Origin: Myxococcota bacterium
Lineage (GTDB): Bacteria > Myxococcota_A > UBA796 > CAJQPC01
Direction of reading: 5' to 3'
Assembly (NCBI GenBank): GCA_036229005.1
Contig: JAZAMN010000027.1
Coordinates: 1 to 38,286, forward strand
Length of the DNA: 38,286 nucleotides
Positions within the stretch are counted from its first letter, which is position 1. Each line of letters starts with the position of its first letter. Of the stretch, positions 544-38,286 are shown in pieces. The notes beneath the pieces were generated by a model. It was not told the DNA's origin. It worked only from the letters and a program-made list of their open reading frames with translations, and did no database searches. Both the position numbers and the translations under genes were made by a program.

Positions 544-2328
544 ATGTTGTTGCTGATGATGAGCCTGGTGCAGGCTCAGGATTTCACCAATGGCCAGGTA
601 CCGGAGGGGCTCAATGGCCAGCTCTTCCGTCCGAGCCTGGACGCCAAGAACACCCTGTGGGTCAACGACTCCCTGCGTGCACCCAGCGGGTACACCTTCG
701 GGAAGGCGATGATCCACTACGCCAACGATCCCGTCGTGTACCTGCGCGATGACGGCGAGCGCATGGAGCTGGTCTCCGGCATCTGGCAGCTCGACGTGAT
801 GGCCGGCTACACCCGCGGCCCCGTCCGGCTGGGCGTGCAGGTCCCCGTGTACCTGCGCACCAACGGCTCCTCCGGCGGCGAGACCGGCCTGGGTGACCTC
901 GGCCTGGACGTCAAGGTGAGCGCCCTGGATCGCACCGAGAAGCCCGTTGGGTTGGCCTTTGCTGGTCGCGTCTTCGTCCCCACCGCCACGGTCACCGCCC
1001 CCCTGGGCAACGACGGCTTGGGCTGGGAGGTCGAGGCCATCGTGGACAAGGAGCTGAGCGAGAAGTGGCTGCTGGCCGCCAACGTCGGCACCCGCGGGGT
1101 CCCCACCGTCGAGCTCGAGAACCTGACCTGGGACGACCAGGTCTTCGTCCGCGCTGGCGCTGGCTACACCATCCGCCCCAATGACCTGGGCCTCAGCCTG
1201 GATCTGGCCTCCCACTTCACCTACGGCGAGTTCTCCAACCCCGCGGCGCGCCCCATCGAGGGCATCGTCGGTGGTTGGTACCGCTTGGCGGGCAACTGGG
1301 TCCTGCGCGGTGGCGTCGGAACGGGCCTGAACTCGGCGGTGGGCAGCCCCCGCTTCCGCCTCATGGCCGGCATCGGCTGGGAGCCTAGCTGGGGCCCCAT
1401 CGACACCGACAACGACGGCGTCATGGACGATGTCGACCAGTGCGTCACCGATCCCGAGGATCTGGACGGCGTGATGGACAGCGACGGCTGCCCCGAGGCC
1501 ACTCGCGTGACCGTGCTGGTGGTGGACGCTGACGGCAACGAGGTCCCCGGCGGCACCTGGAGCGGCGCGGGCAACTCCGGAGCTTCCGGCGACGTCATGG
1601 AGATCTTCGGCGGCAGCGCTGCGATCTCCGCCAAGGCCGAGGGCTTCCTGGACGGGGCGGTCACCGCCGATGTCCCGGACGCCGAGTCCTTCACCGTCTC
1701 CGTCCCCCTCACCCCGGCCATGATCCCCGGCACCCTGCTGGTCAAGGCCATGGATGAGGCGGGCAACACCGTCGAGGACGCCGTCTGGAAGCACCGCAAG
1801 CTGGCCCCCCAGGGCCAGGCTGCTGGCGAGAGCCTGGATGTCGAGCCCGGCGAGTACGTGATCACCGTCGAGGCCCCCGGCTACGGCACCCAGCGCGCCG
1901 AGGTCGTGGTGGTCAAGGAGTCGGTCGCCGAGGTCGTGCTCACCCTCAAGCCCGCCAAGGTGGAGCTGGAGGCGGAGCGCATCACGATCAAGGACTCGGT
2001 CTACTTCGAGACCAACAAGGCCATCATCAAGTCCGAGAGCCACGAGCTCCTGGACGAGGTCGCGGCCATCCTGATCGCGCACCCCGAGCTGACCAAGATC
2101 CGCATCGAGGGCCACACGGACTCCCGTGGCGCCGCCGACTACAACAAGGATCTCTCCCAGCGCCGCGCCGAGGCCGTCCAGGACTACCTGGTGTCCAAGG
2201 GCGTCGAGGCGGGCCGCCTGGAGGCCGTCGGATACGGCGAGGAGAAGCCCCTGGACGAGCGGAACAACGCCGCCGCCTGGGAGAAGAACCGCCGGGTCGA
2301 CTTCTTCGTCGCTGAGCGCAGCGACTGA
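544..2328 (+). CDS. OmpA-family outer membrane protein (N-terminal beta-barrel, short TSP3 repeat, Ig/PEGA-like domains, C-terminal OmpA domain)
   Basis: GGAG RBS; signal peptide; DTDNDGVMDDVDQC...DGCP repeat; OmpA motifs IEGHTD, LSQRRAEAV, GYGE, NRRVDF. Confidence 0.9.
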   Translation: MLLLMMSLVQAQDFTNGQVPEGLNGQLFRPSLDAKNTLWVNDSLRAPSGYTFGKAMIHYANDPVVYLRDDGERMELVSGIWQLDVMAGYTRGPVRLGVQVPVYLRTNGSSGGETGLGDLGLDVKVSALDRTEKPVGLAFAGRVFVPTATVTAPLGNDGLGWEVEAIVDKELSEKWLLAANVGTRGVPTVELENLTWDDQVFVRAGAGYTIRPNDLGLSLDLASHFTYGEFSNPAARPIEGIVGGWYRLAGNWVLRGGVGTGLNSAVGSPRFRLMAGIGWEPSWGPIDTDNDGVMDDVDQCVTDPEDLDGVMDSDGCPEATRVTVLVVDADGNEVPGGTWSGAGNSGASGDVMEIFGGSAAISAKAEGFLDGAVTADVPDAESFTVSVPLTPAMIPGTLLVKAMDEAGNTVEDAVWKHRKLAPQGQAAGESLDVEPGEYVITVEAPGYGTQRAEVVVVKESVAEVVLTLKPAKVELEAERITIKDSVYFETNKAIIKSESHELLDEVAAILIAHPELTKIRIEGHTDSRGAADYNKDLSQRRAEAVQDYLVSKGVEAGRLEAVGYGEEKPLDERNNAAAWEKNRRVDFFVAERSD

Positions 2329-2491
2329 TCTCTGCGCAGGGGGCCCTCTGGGGGTCCCCGCACGATCCATCTCAGCAGGCCGCCAGAAGTTCGTCTCCTG
2401 GCGGCCTCTTTGCTTGCGGGGGACCGCCGGTCAGGGCACTGTCCCCCAGCCGGCCAGAGAGATCTGGTCGCGACAGTTCTTGGAGACAGAC

Positions 2492-5400
2492 ATGCGTCGC
2501 TTGACCGCTCTACTCGGGGCCACTGGCCTCTTCGCCATGCCCGCCATCGCCAGCGCTGCCTGCGGCGACGGGACCATCGACTCCGGGGAGACCTGCGATG
2601 ACGGGAACACCACCGACGGCGATGGCTGCGACGCGAGCTGTGCCACGGAGGCCGGCTACGAGTGCACCGAGGCCACCTTCGAGCTGGACTTCGAGGAGAC
2701 CCTCTCCAGCAGCAGCTCCGGACCCGTCTGGACTCTGAGCAGCGACAAGCGGACGGTGAGCCAGAGCCGGAACTCCGCCGCGGGTGTCTACATGTCCTCG
2801 CTGCCCGCCAGCGGCGTGACCATCGAGATGGACATCGCGGTCAACACGACCTCGGATGACGACTTCAACGGCTTCGTGATCGGCTACGAGACCGGCGAGT
2901 GGAGCTCCTCCTCTGCGGAGTGGCTTCTTTTTGACTGGAAGCAGTACACCTCGGGTGGTGGCAGCGCGGGGACCGCCCTCAGCTACATCGACGGCCCCGT
3001 CACGGACTCCACGCTCTGGTCCCACAGCGGCAACGTCAACGAGATCACCCGCGGCAGCGCCTACGGCAGCACCGGGTGGCGCGACAACCAGTCCTACACG
3101 ATCTCGGTCACCTACACGACCAGCCAGATCGACATCTATGTCGACGGGACGCTGGACTTCTCCGTCGTCCCCGCAGACGCCGGGCTGAGCTCCTTCCCCA
3201 CAGGCAACTTTGGCTTCTACACCCTCTCCCAGGCCTACAACGAGTTCAGCCTGGTGTCTCCGGATGAGGGCCTGAGCGTCTGCGCCGAGCTGGACAGCGA
3301 CGGCGACGGCCTGACCGACCCGGTCGAGATCGCCGCTGGCCTGGACGAGACCTCCACGGACACCGACGGCGACGGCATCGACGACCTCAGCGAGTACGGC
3401 GACCCCACCGGCTCGGGCACCGACACGGACAGCGACGGGGTCATCGACGCGGCCGACAGCGACGACGACGGCGACGGCATCGACACCGTCGACGAGATCT
3501 ACGGCACCGTGACCGCTCCGGAGGACCAGGACAGCGACGGTGACGGCACGCCCGACTACCTGGACGTGGATGACGACGGCGACGGAGTCAACACCGAGGA
3601 CGAGGTCTACGGCTCGACCACCGACCCCGCCACCCAGGACACCGACGGCGACGGCACCGCCGACTACCTGGACACCGACGACGACGGCGACGGCATCCTC
3701 AGCGCTGACGAGGTCTACGGCTCCGAGACCGACCCGGCCGCCCAGGACAGCGACAGCGACGGCGTCCCGGACATGGTGGACAGCGACGATGACGGCGACG
3801 GGGTGCTCACCTCCCTCGAAGACGTCGACGGCGACGGCGACCCCACCAACGATGACAGCGACGGCGACGGCACCTACGATTACCTCGACCTCGACGATGA
3901 TGGCGATGGTGTGGCCACGTCCGACGAGGACACCGGTGGAGACGGTGATCCCACCAATGACGACACGGACGGTGACCTCCTCCCCGACTACCTGGACAGC
4001 GACGACGACGGCGACGGCATCGGCACCGCAGACGAGGTTTATGGCTCGGTGACCGATCCGGCGGATCAGGACAGCGACAGCGACGGCATCGCCGACTACC
4101 TGGACAGCGACGACGACGGCGACGGCATCGCCACCAGCGCTGAGGACCTGAACGGCGACGGCGACCCGGGCAGCGACGATAGCGACAGCGACGGCACCGC
4201 CAACTACCTGGACAGCGACGACGACGGCGACGGCGTGGGCACCGCGGACGAGGACGTCGACGGCGACGGCGACTCCACCGACGACGACACGGACGGTGAC
4301 GGCATCGTCGACTACCTGGACGTGGACGACGACGGCGACGGCGTGAACACCGCGGACGAGGCCTACGGCTCGGTGACGGACCCGGCGGCCCAGGACAGCG
4401 ACAGCGACGGCACCGCCGACTACCTGGACACGGACGACGACGGGGACGGCATCGCCACCTCGGCCGAGGTCTACGGCGGCGTCACGGACCCCGCGTCCCA
4501 GGACTCCGACGGCGACGGCGTGGCCGACTACCTGGACACCGACGATGACGGCGACGGCATCGCCACCAGCGACGAGGACCTGGACGGCGACGGCGACCCA
4601 AGCGACGACGACAGCGACGGCGACGGGATCCCCAACAGCATCGACAGCGACGACGACGGCGACGGCGTGGCCACCGCGGACGAGGACATCGACGGTGACG
4701 GCGACTGGAGCTCCGACGACGCGGACGGCGACGGCATCCCCAACTACATCGACGCCGACGATGACGGGGACGGCGTAGCCACCGTGGACGAGGACCTGGA
4801 TGGCGACGGCGACTCCAGCGACGACGACACCGACGGCGACGGCACCCCCGACTACCTGGACAGCGACGACGACGGCGACGGCGTGCCCACCGCCGATGAG
4901 GACGGCGACGGCGACGGCGACCCCACCAGCGACGACAGCGACAGCGACGGCGTGGCCGACTACCTGGACAGCGACGACGACGGTGACGGCGTGCCCACCG
5001 CGGACGAGGTGTACGACGGCGAGACCGACCCCGTCGCGCAGGACTCCGACTCGGACGGCGTGGCCGACTACCTGGACAGCGACGACGACGGAGACGGCAT
5101 CGCCACCTCGGATGAGGACAGGGACGAGGACGGGGACCCGACCAACGACGACACCGATGGGGACACCACCCCGGACTACCTGGATGTCGATGACGACGGA
5201 GACGGCGTCGCGACCGCAGACGAGGACATCGACGGCGACGGCGACTCCAGCGACGACGACACGGACGGAGACGGCACCGCCGACTACCTGGACAGCGACG
5301 ACGACGGCGACGGCGTCGACACCGCGGACGAGGTCTACGGCTCGGTGACCGATCCCGAGGACCAGGACACCGACGGCGACGGCACGCCCGACTACCTGGA

Positions 5401-6862
5401 CAGCGACGACGACGGCGACGGCATCGCGACCACCGATGAGGACCTCGACGGCGACGGCGATCCCACCAGCGACGACTCCGACAGCGACGGCACCCCCGAC
5501 TACATCGACGCGGACGATGACGGCGACGGCATCGACACCGCGGACGAGGGCACCGACGGCGACGGCGACCCCCTCAACGACGACACCGACGGCGACGGCA
5601 TCCCGGACTACCTGGACAGCGACTCCGACGGTGACGGCGTGGACGACGCGGACGAGCTCACCGGCGGGACCGATCCCTTCGACGACGACTCCGACGGCGA
5701 CGGCCTCAGCGATGGCGAGGAGCTCGAGCTCGGCCTGGACCCCAACGACGCCTACGGTGACGCCGACGGCGATGGCCTCAGCGACTCGGACGAGGTCAGC
5801 ATCCACGGCACCGACCCCAACGTGGCTGACAGCGACGGCGACGGCCTGGGCGACGGCGACGAGGTCAACACCCACGCCACCGACCCCCTGGACGCCGACT
5901 CCGACCAAGACGGCCTGGACGACTACGAAGAGGTGGTCGACCACGGCACCGATCCGAACTCCGCGGACACGGACGAGGACGGGCTCAGCGACCTGGACGA
6001 GGTCGAGATCCACACCACGGACCCCACCGTGGCCGACACCGACAGCGACGGGCTGGACGACGGCGAGGAGGTCGAGGACTTCTTCACCGACCCCCTGGAC
6101 GAGGACACCGACGACGACGGCCTGCTGGACGGTCGCGAGATCGACGAGACCGGCACCGACCCCCTGGATGAGGACTCCGACGACGGCGGCCGCAGCGACG
6201 GGGAAGAGGTGGACATCGATGACACCGATCCCAACGACACCGCCGACGATCTCAGCGATCGCGACGACGACGGCGTGACCGACTGGGCCGAGGAGAACGA
6301 GACCTTCACCGACCCCGACGACGCGGACTCCGACGACGACGGCCTGCTGGACGGCGAGGAGGTCTACACCGCAGGCACCGACCCCAACGACTCCGACAGC
6401 GACGACGACGGCCTGCTGGACGGCGAGGAGCTCCAGGAGTGGGGCACCGACCCGCTGGTCGCCGACACCGACGAGGACGGCCTGGACGACGGCGCCGAGG
6501 TGCTGGATTGGGGCTCCGATCCCCTGGTCCAGGACACGGACGAGGATGGGCTGCTGGATGGCGCTGAGGTCTACGACCACAACTCCGATCCCACCTTGGC
6601 GGACACCGACTCGGACGGGCTGGATGATGGCGTCGAGGTCAACGAGTGGGGGACCGACCCCGCTGATCCCGACACCGACGACGGCGGCATCTCCGACGGC
6701 GACGAGGTCGAGCGCGGCACCGATCCCCTGGTGTCCAGCGACGACGTCGGCCACTACGGCGGCGGCTGGAGCTGCTCGACCACCTCGGGCGTCGGTGGGC
6801 TGCTGCCCGCCCTGCTCGGTGTGCTCCTGGGTGGCCTTGTCCTGAGGCGTCGGGAGGACTAA
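2492..6862 (+). CDS. Large secreted adhesin-like protein: myxobacterial Cys-rich repeat, thrombospondin C-terminal-like lectin domain, long TSP3 Ca-binding repeat array, MYXO-CTERM-like anchor
   Basis: ATG at 2492 after GGAG; signal MRRLTALLG; CGDG...CDDGN...DGCDASC; DDDFNGFVIGY and WKQ motifs; dozens of DxDxDG repeats; GGWSCST-TM-RRR tail. Confidence 0.85.
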   Translation: MRRLTALLGATGLFAMPAIASAACGDGTIDSGETCDDGNTTDGDGCDASCATEAGYECTEATFELDFEETLSSSSSGPVWTLSSDKRTVSQSRNSAAGVYMSSLPASGVTIEMDIAVNTTSDDDFNGFVIGYETGEWSSSSAEWLLFDWKQYTSGGGSAGTALSYIDGPVTDSTLWSHSGNVNEITRGSAYGSTGWRDNQSYTISVTYTTSQIDIYVDGTLDFSVVPADAGLSSFPTGNFGFYTLSQAYNEFSLVSPDEGLSVCAELDSDGDGLTDPVEIAAGLDETSTDTDGDGIDDLSEYGDPTGSGTDTDSDGVIDAADSDDDGDGIDTVDEIYGTVTAPEDQDSDGDGTPDYLDVDDDGDGVNTEDEVYGSTTDPATQDTDGDGTADYLDTDDDGDGILSADEVYGSETDPAAQDSDSDGVPDMVDSDDDGDGVLTSLEDVDGDGDPTNDDSDGDGTYDYLDLDDDGDGVATSDEDTGGDGDPTNDDTDGDLLPDYLDSDDDGDGIGTADEVYGSVTDPADQDSDSDGIADYLDSDDDGDGIATSAEDLNGDGDPGSDDSDSDGTANYLDSDDDGDGVGTADEDVDGDGDSTDDDTDGDGIVDYLDVDDDGDGVNTADEAYGSVTDPAAQDSDSDGTADYLDTDDDGDGIATSAEVYGGVTDPASQDSDGDGVADYLDTDDDGDGIATSDEDLDGDGDPSDDDSDGDGIPNSIDSDDDGDGVATADEDIDGDGDWSSDDADGDGIPNYIDADDDGDGVATVDEDLDGDGDSSDDDTDGDGTPDYLDSDDDGDGVPTADEDGDGDGDPTSDDSDSDGVADYLDSDDDGDGVPTADEVYDGETDPVAQDSDSDGVADYLDSDDDGDGIATSDEDRDEDGDPTNDDTDGDTTPDYLDVDDDGDGVATADEDIDGDGDSSDDDTDGDGTADYLDSDDDGDGVDTADEVYGSVTDPEDQDTDGDGTPDYLDSDDDGDGIATTDEDLDGDGDPTSDDSDSDGTPDYIDADDDGDGIDTADEGTDGDGDPLNDDTDGDGIPDYLDSDSDGDGVDDADELTGGTDPFDDDSDGDGLSDGEELELGLDPNDAYGDADGDGLSDSDEVSIHGTDPNVADSDGDGLGDGDEVNTHATDPLDADSDQDGLDDYEEVVDHGTDPNSADTDEDGLSDLDEVEIHTTDPTVADTDSDGLDDGEEVEDFFTDPLDEDTDDDGLLDGREIDETGTDPLDEDSDDGGRSDGEEVDIDDTDPNDTADDLSDRDDDGVTDWAEENETFTDPDDADSDDDGLLDGEEVYTAGTDPNDSDSDDDGLLDGEELQEWGTDPLVADTDEDGLDDGAEVLDWGSDPLVQDTDEDGLLDGAEVYDHNSDPTLADTDSDGLDDGVEVNEWGTDPADPDTDDGGISDGDEVERGTDPLVSSDDVGHYGGGWSCSTTSGVGGLLPALLGVLLGGLVLRRRED

Positions 6863-33192: not shown

Positions 33193-33490
33193 GGCTACGG
33201 GGTGTGAGTGAGCGGGACCCTGCGGCTACGGGGTGTGAGTGAGCGGGACCCCGAGGCTACGGGGTCCGACTGAGCGGTCTTCTGAGGCTACCGCCCACCA
33301 GTGAGCGATCGGGCCACCGTTTTGGCGTGTTCGAGGGCGAATTGGGCCAGAAATGGCCGATTTGAGGCTGAATCGGGGGCTGCACGGGCTGGATCGGTGG
33401 CCGGATCGCTCACTGAGTATGCCTGGCCTCAGCGAGTCGCTCATTCAGGGGGCGTAGCCACCCCTGGGCGCTCATCCAGGGTGCGTAGCC
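33193..33490. repeat. Bipartite REP/REPIN-like array, GTAG variant: 4 direct plus 3 inverted 31-bp units
   Basis: GGCTAC-N10-TGAGCG at 33193, 33224, 33255, 33286; inverted CGCTCA-N10-(CTG/GTA)GCC at 33407, 33438, 33469; 21-bp inner inverted repeat 33299-33319/33395-33415 with one mismatch. Confidence 0.92.
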
Positions 33491-35499: not shown

Positions 35500-35628
35500 A
35501 AGGCGCTTTCTCTTGCGTCCCCGCGGGGGCCTGGGAAAGGTTGCAAGGGCTTGACTCCGCAACGGGGCCCATCGGGGCACCCAATGATGCGGGCTGCACC
35601 GAGCCCCCCACCCCAGACTGGAGCCCCC

Positions 35629-37215
35629 GTGCTGCTGATCCTCTCGCTGCTGGCCTGCACCAAGGACACCCCGGAGACCCCGGACGACACCGGGACGGAG
35701 CGCCTGACCTGCGCAGACGGGCTCTACCAGCGGGAGTTCGTGGCCCCTGCGGAGCCCGGGATGCTGCGCCGGGACGCGGCCGGGGACTTCACGCTGCCGC
35801 TGGCGAATGGGGAGAGCTGGACCTTCTCGGAGCACTTTGACGGCTGCGACGTGATGGTGTGGGTCCCGCACAGCCTCAAGAACTTCAGCGGGGACCGGAT
35901 CTGGGAGGACGGGGTGGCCGACCTGGTCGACCAGTCGCCGGCCAACGCCATCTACGTGTTCTACGTGGAGGGGATCTACGCGGACTCCGCGGTCGAGCAC
36001 TACGAGGCGCAGCAGGCCCGCGTGGACGAGTACCTGGCCACCCTGGACGAGGAGCAGGCCGCCTGGTGGTCCGAGCGCCTGCTGGTGGTCGCGGGCACCA
36101 CGCGGGAGGGCTGGACAGGGCCGGCCGCGGTGGCCACGGGGACCTTCGACAACGGCATGGCGATCGACCGGCTGCAGCAGCTTCGCGGGGTGGGCAGCTA
36201 CGCGGATGTGCGGGATCTGAACAACTCGGTGGGCTGGTACGACTCCCGCCTGGAGCGCGCCCGCCACGAGGTCGAGTACCTGAACTGGGAGGCCCAGCGC
36301 GCCCAGGAGATGGAGGAGACCGAGAAGTTCGCGACCCGCGTGGACTTCTGGCAGGGCGACATCATCGAGGAGTACGAGGACATCACCGTCACGCTGCCCT
36401 CGGCCGATGAGATGTCCGGCTTCGACACCCTGGAGATCGAGGTGCTCATGGAGTGCCCCGACAGCGAGGCCATCGAGCAGAACAACTGCGGCGCCTGGGA
36501 CTACCTGGCGTACATGTGGGTCCTGGCGCCCGACGGCGAGACCTGGTGGGAGGTCTCCCGCTTCATCACCACCTACCACCGCGAGTCGCACTGGGTGGTC
36601 GACGGCACGCACGCGCTGCCCTGGCTGGCCGAGGGCGGTGAGCACACCTTCCGCTTCCAGTGGGCGCCGAGCTGGAACACCCAGCCCACGGCGGTCACCG
36701 CCAGCCTGCGCCTGAGCAACCAGGGCAAGGGCTACAAGCCGGTCAAGACCACCCCCCTGTTCACCGGCGGGGACTTCACCGCTGGCTACACCGACGACTA
36801 CGAGCCCATCGAGGTCGAGGTCTCAAGCGACGCCGCCCACGTCGAGCTGGTCACCATCCTGACCGGCCACGGCATGGAGACCAACAACTGCGCGGAGTTC
36901 TGTGACCACCGCCACTTCTGGGACGTGGACGGAGCCGTCAGCGAGCAGAGCTTCACCGACGTGGTCGGCGACCAGGAGGGCTGCTCGGGCCGCGCCAGCG
37001 AGGGCGTCGTCCCCAACCAGGGCGGCACCTGGTGGTTCGGTCGCGGCGGCTGGTGCCCCGGCGAGAAGGTCGAGCCCTTTGTGGTCGACGCCACCGAGGC
37101 CGCCGCCGATGGCAGCGTGACCGTCGACTACTACTCCACCTACAAGGTGCAGCCCTCCATCCCCTCGGGCAGCGGCAACATCGAGCTGCGGAGCTGGCTG
37201 GTCGAGTATCAGTAG
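35629..37215 (+). CDS. Peptide-N-glycosidase F-like lipoprotein with N-terminal redoxin-like segment
   Basis: GTG after GGAG; lipobox LLAC; CGAWDY, RFITTY, TGHG, CAEFC, GTWWFGRGGWCPG. Confidence 0.82.
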   Translation: MLLILSLLACTKDTPETPDDTGTERLTCADGLYQREFVAPAEPGMLRRDAAGDFTLPLANGESWTFSEHFDGCDVMVWVPHSLKNFSGDRIWEDGVADLVDQSPANAIYVFYVEGIYADSAVEHYEAQQARVDEYLATLDEEQAAWWSERLLVVAGTTREGWTGPAAVATGTFDNGMAIDRLQQLRGVGSYADVRDLNNSVGWYDSRLERARHEVEYLNWEAQRAQEMEETEKFATRVDFWQGDIIEEYEDITVTLPSADEMSGFDTLEIEVLMECPDSEAIEQNNCGAWDYLAYMWVLAPDGETWWEVSRFITTYHRESHWVVDGTHALPWLAEGGEHTFRFQWAPSWNTQPTAVTASLRLSNQGKGYKPVKTTPLFTGGDFTAGYTDDYEPIEVEVSSDAAHVELVTILTGHGMETNNCAEFCDHRHFWDVDGAVSEQSFTDVVGDQEGCSGRASEGVVPNQGGTWWFGRGGWCPGEKVEPFVVDATEAAADGSVTVDYYSTYKVQPSIPSGSGNIELRSWLVEYQ

Positions 37216-37985
37216 CGGGTCCAGAAGCCTCTACCTGCCGGGATCCCCGGAAAGCGGGGGTCGCCCAGGAGCAGGGCGGTGCGCTGGACGTGCTCGTCTG
37301 GCGGACCTTGGCGGCGCAGCGTGGCCGGGCTCGTGTCCAGCATGTCGGCCAGCTCGCCGGGTTTGGCGCAGATCAGGGCCTTCGCTGAGCGGAGCAGCAG
37401 ACTGCGGGCCGGTCCGCGTTGATCGAGCTGGTGGATGGGCATCCGGCAGTAGCCGGAGACGGCCGCCTGGAGCTCGTGCAGGGTAGGGTCGCGGCTCATC
37501 CCGCCGGGCAACTGGCTGCCCTCCAGGGAGACCGACTCGTCTTGGGAGGTGTAGGCGTGCAGCCGGTGGGGCTCGCGGTGCTTGGGGCGCACCGGGCTGT
37601 GGGCGAACCCCACCGCATCCCGGTAGGTGGACCAGGGCCAGGCCAGCGGGTCGTCCACCATCCCGGCGCGGCAGGGGTTCAGGTGGATGTAGCGGGTCTC
37701 GCGCCGCCGCTTCTGGTCATCGGCCGCCCAGCGCGACTCGGGCAGCTTCTCGATGCGTCTACCCTTGAGGCCCTGGGCGTGGTTCAGGCTGCGGCTGTGC
37801 GCCCGCAGGGCCTGGGCCAGCTCCAGGCGCAGATCCTTGTGGTGCTGCAGGTGCACGTGGTTGGGCATCAGACAGAGGGCCTCCATCCCCGCGCACGCGC
37901 GGGTGATGCGCTGCCACAGCGCGGCCGCGTCCTCCCAGGTGGAGATGAGGAGCCCGGCGTCAGCGCGGGCGACGATGTGGTACAT
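37209..37985 (-). CDS. REP-associated tyrosine transposase (RAYT/TnpA-REP, Y1 HUH) with C-terminal helical extension
   Basis: ATG at 37985 after GGGAG; MYHIVAR, LCLMPNHVHL (HUH), YIHLNPCRAGMV...WPWSTY. Confidence 0.85.
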   Translation of the reverse strand: MYHIVARADAGLLISTWEDAAALWQRITRACAGMEALCLMPNHVHLQHHKDLRLELAQALRAHSRSLNHAQGLKGRRIEKLPESRWAADDQKRRRETRYIHLNPCRAGMVDDPLAWPWSTYRDAVGFAHSPVRPKHREPHRLHAYTSQDESVSLEGSQLPGGMSRDPTLHELQAAVSGYCRMPIHQLDQRGPARSLLLRSAKALICAKPGELADMLDTSPATLRRQGPPDEHVQRTALLLGDPRFPGIPAGRGFWTRY

Positions 37986-38063
37986 GCTCGCTCCCTTTTC
38001 GGGGTGGGGGAGCAAAGCGCGTGCCGGCGCCAAGTGGCTGAAAGCACGTGTGGTGTCGGCTGG

Positions 38064-38106
38064 GGTGTCGGGTCTTCGACACCTGGACGGGCCCTTTCGA
38101 CGGGCC
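38064..38106. other. Two short hairpins upstream of the RAYT gene
   Basis: GGTGTCG-GGTCTT-CGACACC (38064-38083) and GGCCC-TTTCGAC-GGGCC (38090-38106). Confidence 0.45.
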
Positions 38107-38155
38107 AGCGGTGGTGAATGAGCGCGACCCGGTGGCTACGGCCTCCGAGTGAGCA
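38103..38155. repeat. Two units of the 31-bp GTAG-variant repeat, the second interrupted by IS110
   Basis: GGCCAG-N10-TGAGCG-N9-GGCTAC-N10-TGAGCA, same geometry as the 33193 array. Confidence 0.85.
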
Positions 38156-38286
38156 ACCGTCTTCTTCAAGTTGTTTGAACGGCCGGCGCAGTCGGCTGCG
38201 CAAGGTAGCTCCTCATCGTGCTGTTGAGGTGGATGAGGAGCTTCCGCATGCAGGCCACGATCGCGACCTTGGCTGGCTTTCCCTTG
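38152..38286 (-). mobile_element. Right end of an IS110-family insertion sequence (remainder outside window)
   Basis: Transposase 3' end followed by TTGAAGAAGACGGTTGCT, with the terminal CT shared with the repeat box. Confidence 0.78.
38166..38286 (-). CDS. IS110-family transposase, C-terminal fragment (absent from ORF track)
   Basis: Hand translation KGKPAKVAIVACMRKLLIHLNSTMRSYLAQPTAPAVQTT-stop matches the typical IS110 tail GKPxKVAIVAxMRKLL. Confidence 0.85.
   Translation of the reverse strand, partial: KGKPAKVAIVACMRKLLIHLNSTMRSYLAQPTAPAVQTT

Follow-up and report, generated by a model that had tools for sequence, protein, structure and literature searches.

What brings an IS110 element to rest at a single dinucleotide of a 31-bp tandem repeat, and is that position encoded in the element itself? 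This question is raised by the far edge of the window, by which we mean the whole stretch of DNA analyzed (38,286 nucleotides). The window is the entire contig C27 of a Myxococcota genome (6.4 Mb, 74 contigs, 70% GC), and the sequencing runs that contain it are marine. Because it comprises all of C27, the element runs past the contig end. Read on the minus strand, the 3' end of an IS110 recombinase gene (its final 39 codons plus the stop, 38166–38285, the remainder beyond the contig end; stop TGA at 38168–38166) is followed by a 12-nucleotide noncoding right end (38165–38154), the CT core dinucleotide that forms the recombination junction (38153–38152), and the pentamer CACTC (38151–38147). 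From the CT onward, this is the rest of an interrupted 31-bp array, of which a complete unit and, at the end, a CGCTCATTC box are left (38116–38153, minus strand). The initial annotation had located the insertion exactly at the CT of the conserved CGCTCA box, and the reading above agrees with it to the base. The G preceding the CT is common to donor and target, so the window locus alone would be compatible with GCT as the core; it is the relatives with different flanks that establish CT.

The interrupted array belongs to a large repeat family. A loose pattern retrieved 357 units in the genome (shuffle expectation, about 38), of which 336 fall within 59 multi-unit loci that make up 0.29% of the genome. 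By type, 46 of these loci carry the CGCTCA box and 13 carry CGCGCA, a box without the CT core. A second, uninterrupted locus of the same family lies in the window at 33193–33490 and is built of two inverted arms of 31-bp units. The strict repeat pattern was found in none of the five relatives searched (three of the same genus; 75–95% complete).

Downstream of the interrupted array, 166 nucleotides from the CT core, lies an intact gene on the minus strand (37209–37985; 258 amino acids from the ATG at 37985) for an HUH transposase. Its product carries NHVHL and YIHLNP motifs and matches NF047646 with an E value of 3.6e-9 and 36.6 bits, below the curated cut-off of 80, and we therefore call it RAYT-like only; it gave no match to Pfam Y1_Tnp. 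The gene has five paralogues in the genome. The window copy follows a CGCTCA-type array; on C52, a paralogue with 69% identity to it comes after an array of the CGCGCA type. The RAYT-like gene is a probable partner of the 31-bp repeat family. That the IS110 element sits next to it may be chance, this being 1 of 46 same-type loci for about five copies. Three RAYT-like paralogues, L081 (C52), L088 (C32), and L094 (C21), each adjoin a tandem-repeat variant of their own and have a C-terminal helix-turn-helix. On its other side, the end of the window gene overlaps a convergent gene (35551–37215) with a peptide-N-glycosidase F C-terminal domain (PF09113). Elsewhere in the window, a large protein (2126–6862) contains about 21 tandem 108-nucleotide repeats and further acidic repeats of 69 nucleotides, which are probably surface repeats that bind calcium. 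Acidic repeats of this kind also contain the contig breaks at C27, C55, C52, and C1.

We then considered where the other copies of the element lie. The same right end, identical over its 12 nucleotides, closes five contigs (C27, C29, C15, C48, and C50), and CT-CACTC comes next in all five. The flank is a full repeat unit at three of these ends and is something else at C48 and C50; at C50 it is the reverse strand of a gene, an 866-codon frame ending at that TGA. Four contig ends (C22, C58, C29, and C71) have a common left end, preceded in 4/4 cases by a repeat array ending in AGCG-CT. The far boundary thus abuts a repeat unit at the CT, as the initial annotation had predicted, and the empty allele described below agrees. 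Loose contig ends from other strains added four right flanks, two in repeat units and two resembling gene ends. Altogether, five of the nine distinct right flanks are units of the 31-bp repeat, and the remainder (C48, C50, and two in the public run X3, judged on the visible side) are mostly gene stop codons. Within the repeat, the junction position is fixed: in every case it is the CT of the CGCTCA box. The suggestion that other copies occupy the same box is borne out at all four left flanks and five right flanks; the other four right flanks are not repeat units on the visible side. One X3 insertion lies at a stop codon outside the repeat family; the corresponding site, unoccupied in the genome analyzed here, is where a 364-codon frame stops, adjacent to a different repeat family, and matches the left guide (see below) at 3/7 positions. 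For the other three of the four other-strain flanks, no empty counterpart was found in this genome.

A search of the assembly for a fifth left end found none. If the genome holds exactly five copies, at least one of the C48 and C50 right ends must therefore pair with a repeat-side left end. Pairing left and right ends by gene order in G001–G003 gave a weak C58–C29 link only, with C48 and C50 unlinked. The window right end likely pairs with the C22 left end, the one of the four whose flank comes closest to the empty allele.

Contigs of four public runs were compared with the window, and two of the runs (X2 and X3) yielded the unoccupied site, from strains in which the unit is empty and intact. 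In both, 8.1-kb contigs track the window to position 38154 and then continue into an intact unit with one CT. The letters at the empty site are GAAGCG-CT-CACTC in X2 and differ from this by one change in X3. One CT when empty and a CT at each end when filled indicate a core-only insertion with no longer target duplication. A contig of the element itself measures 1229, 1237, and 1227 nucleotides in X1, X2, and X3, respectively. Its depth, which is a rough guide only, compares with that of its surroundings as 34.9 versus about 4 in X1, 935 versus 150 in X3, and 225 versus about 1100 in X2.

The body of the element is absent from the assembly, in which our searches gave just two other IS110 families. 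In genome and metagenome contigs, the best matches were 34–48% identical, apart from a sister element in genome G125. This sister is full-length (1222 nucleotides), and its recombinase is 85% identical to a 61-residue C-terminal piece encoded on C48. The piece alone gave no Pfam match. The sister recombinase matches PF01548, the N-terminal DEDD RuvC domain (E value 1.8e-22), and the C-terminal domain PF02371 (7.5e-16), and it aligns with IS621 (PDB entry 8WT6; 2.5e-24) with the DEDD and serine positions in register. Because the recombinase body and donor loop are unassembled here, the active site and donor guides were read in the sister only. The noncoding left end spans at least 137 nucleotides here and about 245 in the sister, compared with 12 nucleotides for the right end.

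The left end folds as a long hairpin (z score −2.9), and alignment and consensus fold agree. An inner hairpin stands between two loops reading TGAAGCGCT, the putative left guide, and GAGTGAG, the putative right guide; this is the arrangement of the target loop in PMC11208160 and PMC11208158. An Rfam search returned no relevant family. Both predicted guides match the CT flanks, as had been anticipated for a bridge RNA target loop. The right guide, complementary to the CACTC of the window, is exact at 5/5 right ends in the assembly, and the left guide matches the four left flanks at 6, 6, 5, and 4 of 7 noncore bases. All three exact copies of the 13-mer that the guides predict, and 16 of 24 copies with at most one mismatch, lie in repeat loci. 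As for the donor loop, the contigs end where the left donor guide begins. Relatives in G125, G140, G080, and G002 have the same donor as the window element and contain guides for it, and the last 7 nucleotides of our right end (ACGGTTG, 38160–38154) match their left donor guide.

Guides and flanks also vary together among relatives. A model of five left ends gave 113 matches in 168 loci, four of which were the training sequences. Twenty-five of the 113 could be parsed, with 23 distinct guides, in a subset that favors close relatives; the remaining 88 weigh in neither direction. The right guide matched its own flank fully in 14 of 16 cases, with a mean of 4.88/5 against 1.89 when permuted (n = 16); the left guide reached 4.29/6 against 2.55 (n = 14). 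None of 2000 permutations attained the observed match for either guide.

Because the predicted guide RNA matches the repeat and insertion is at the core, the element is likely an RNA-guided, repeat-seeking one. We hold with good confidence that the 31-bp unit is interrupted at the CT by an IS110 element about 1.22 kb long and that the element's predicted bridge RNA likely guides insertion there. The proposal that the element is programmed against the repeat family is supported, but the targeting is not exclusive: with four of nine right flanks outside repeat units on the visible side, the element goes by a short motif in which that family is rich but which also occurs elsewhere. The right guide is obeyed strictly and the left one loosely, so that repeat boxes make the best sites, with GAG-TGA-G gene ends accounting for most of the others. 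By analogy with IS621, the element would circularize, joining ACGGTTG to TGTG across the CT; a noncoding RNA from the left end would pair with the target through its left and right guides; and the DEDD/serine recombinase would exchange strands at the CT.

The initial annotation also proposed TTGAAG (38169–38164, minus strand) as the −35 half of a circle-junction promoter. The motif does lie 12 nucleotides from the end when the CT is counted, and it overlaps the transposase stop codon. It agrees with TTGACA at 4/6 positions, as do 2% of hexamers in this genome, and the best −10 partner across the modeled circle junction scores 3/6 with a spacer of 18. Neither G125 nor G140 retains TTGA at this position. 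In several distant relatives, a TTGAC lies three bases farther out from the core. A promoter scan of the window, in which the junction itself is invisible, found none. With no good −10 at hand, the promoter idea finds little support.

Comparison with the sister indicates how the guides may have arisen. The left ends differ by 13 substitutions and 2 gaps in 137 nucleotides, and the right parts are identical at 175/201. Of the substitutions, five hit the guides, which total 16 positions, and the enclosing stem has none in its arms. The sister has GACTGAG as its right guide, and on the opposite strand its four right flanks read GAC-TGA-G, terminating frames of 442 to more than 490 codons; G461 and G128 show the same stop-codon flanks. 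G140 also carries the GACTGAG guide, on a contig too short for its site to be judged. Five of six GACTGAG-type right flanks are gene ends (rule: 100 codons, GC3 0.8), against a background, with this genome as proxy, of 39% of GACTGAG and 6.5% of TGAG sites. The 31-bp repeat pattern was not found in G125.

In the tree, where the window element is represented by 61 residues, it groups with G125 (100/97), with G461 next (93/92). The right guides of G125, G461, and G140 all read GACTGAG, and this placement makes GACTGAG the more parsimonious ancestral right guide. Such a guide would target the repeat poorly, because none of 28 occurrences of GCGCTCAGTC is in repeat loci. On the tree, a guide directed to stop-codon sites would have been shifted by one base change onto the commonest repeat box of the species. 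The left guide varies among outgroups, so the direction of its change is not fixed. Judged by these sequences, the element probably descends, by natural re-aiming, from one that inserted at gene stop codons; its kin are few and nonindependent, and selection against insertions within genes could account for part of the stop-codon pattern. Among other relatives, L048 (G080:C203) has the right guide TCTCCAG and is inserted in a heptamer tandem repeat of CTGGAGA units. L014, L016, and L025 (G002, same genus) have the same donor and the right guide GCTCGAG and sit in another repeat, with a recombinase that appears deleted or broken. L282 (G128:C31:24619–24880) is a short, apparently recombinase-less derivative with a donor loop and right end, located at a gene stop codon.

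The history of the guides also bears on the alternative that survives best, which we regard as unlikely. It supposes a stop-codon-type IS110 element whose right guide has drifted, so that any CT-CACTC is used with little help from the left guide, and the repeats collect insertions by being rich in the motif and harmless to interrupt. The four nonrepeat right flanks, with the ends of the 866-codon frame on C50 and the 364-codon frame at the X3 site, would suit such an element, as would the sister, which follows its own left guide at only 3–4 of 7 positions; moreover, CGCTCACTC falls within repeat loci 72 of 98 times regardless. The left side of the target argues otherwise. At 4/9 positions the left guide differs from that of the sister, and its present reading, GAAGCG, is that of the inner repeat units; AGCG is present in 4/4 left flanks, whereas only 66 of the 336 units contain AGCGCT.

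It is very improbable that the four left ends come from another IS and that the guide match concerns a different element. The two ends are never on one contig of this assembly, which has five right and four left ends, but G125 has both end types on one contig and one element, and the C22 left flank agrees with the empty allele at 29/31 positions, the best of the four (C71, 27); an intact unit on C54, compared by hand, likewise reaches 29/31. A misassembly at a repeat, conceivable in a metagenome-assembled genome with the junction 134 nucleotides from a contig end, is the least credible account and is already largely refuted, since nine ends obey the same junction logic and an independently assembled X1 contig (X1 may be the source sample) covers 37671–38176 with zero differences.

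The two other IS110 families in the genome were also inspected. The second (G000:C4:147340–148860; L001/L065), with ends on C64, C21, C19, C22, C5, and C42, lies between convergent gene ends. All four of its right flanks are stop codons of 181–916-codon frames (background 27%), a gene end is at most 7 nucleotides away in three of four left flanks, and segments of its left end match both flanks. The third (G000:C52:176000–177540; L002/L004), with ends on C13, C45, C66, C57, C7, and C16, occupies one fixed position in a different repeat family, with left-end segments that match the flanks and apparently a CC core.

A broader picture, toward which we incline only slightly, is that a Myxococcota IS110 lineage homes by guide RNA on stop codons (GAC-TGA-G) as a safe harbor, that about five guide changes re-aimed the window branch at a species-specific RAYT repeat, and that the three IS110 families here divide the noncoding safe sites among them (31-bp repeat, convergent stop codons, and second repeat family). 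The window element offers a clean natural case of a bridge RNA element: alleles with and without it both occur, and its near-identical sister is directed to a different class of site. The pair lends itself to asking how small a number of guide changes suffices to move an IS110 element between safe harbors and whether left and right guides weigh unequally.

Neither the bridge RNA mechanism nor REP targeting is new in itself; the point of interest here is the likely natural switch of target class. REP-targeting IS110 elements are long known (PMC1525189), guide-target agreement across orthologues is given in PMC11208160, natural redirection is published (PMC11187229), and 10.64898/2026.03.19.712850 and 10.64898/2026.08.31.748434 concern target structure and half-matches. 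In a partial search of the literature, neither this lineage nor homing on stop codons came up; the supplementary target tables of PMC11208160 may include cases.

Compared with known systems, the element resembles IS621 of Escherichia coli (Durrant et al. 2024, PMC11208160; Hiraizumi et al. 2024, PMC11208158) in that its left end is long and its right end short, and in its target loop (accompanied by a donor loop in relatives with the same donor), CT core, 9-nucleotide left guide, and REP target. Unlike IS621, which has a 4-nucleotide right guide, it has one of 7 nucleotides (longer ones are mentioned in PMC11208160), its target is a 31-bp tandem unit that has a RAYT-like gene beside it, the genome being marine and of Myxococcota type, and it has no clear junction promoter. 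The repeat and its neighbor recall REP/RAYT systems (NF047646), in which intergenic repeats with a GTAG motif adjoin an HUH transposase gene, but here the units are tandem, 31 bp long, and set in two inverted arms, and the protein falls under the family cut-off with no Y1_Tnp match. Like ISPpu9, ISPpu10, ISPa11, and ISRm19 (type 1 REP association; Tobes and Pareja 2006, PMC1525189), the element takes a fixed position in a species-specific repeat; the association is 100% for those elements, whereas repeat units make up 5/9 right and 4/4 left flanks here. Finally, the natural redirection of ISEc21 and ISMch6 (Siddiquee et al. 2024, PMC11187229) likewise involves close relatives in which few guide bases, and with them the target, have changed; in that case there is a single copy at a modified version of the same target, whereas here several copies are seen on both sides and the change leads from stop codons to a repeat.
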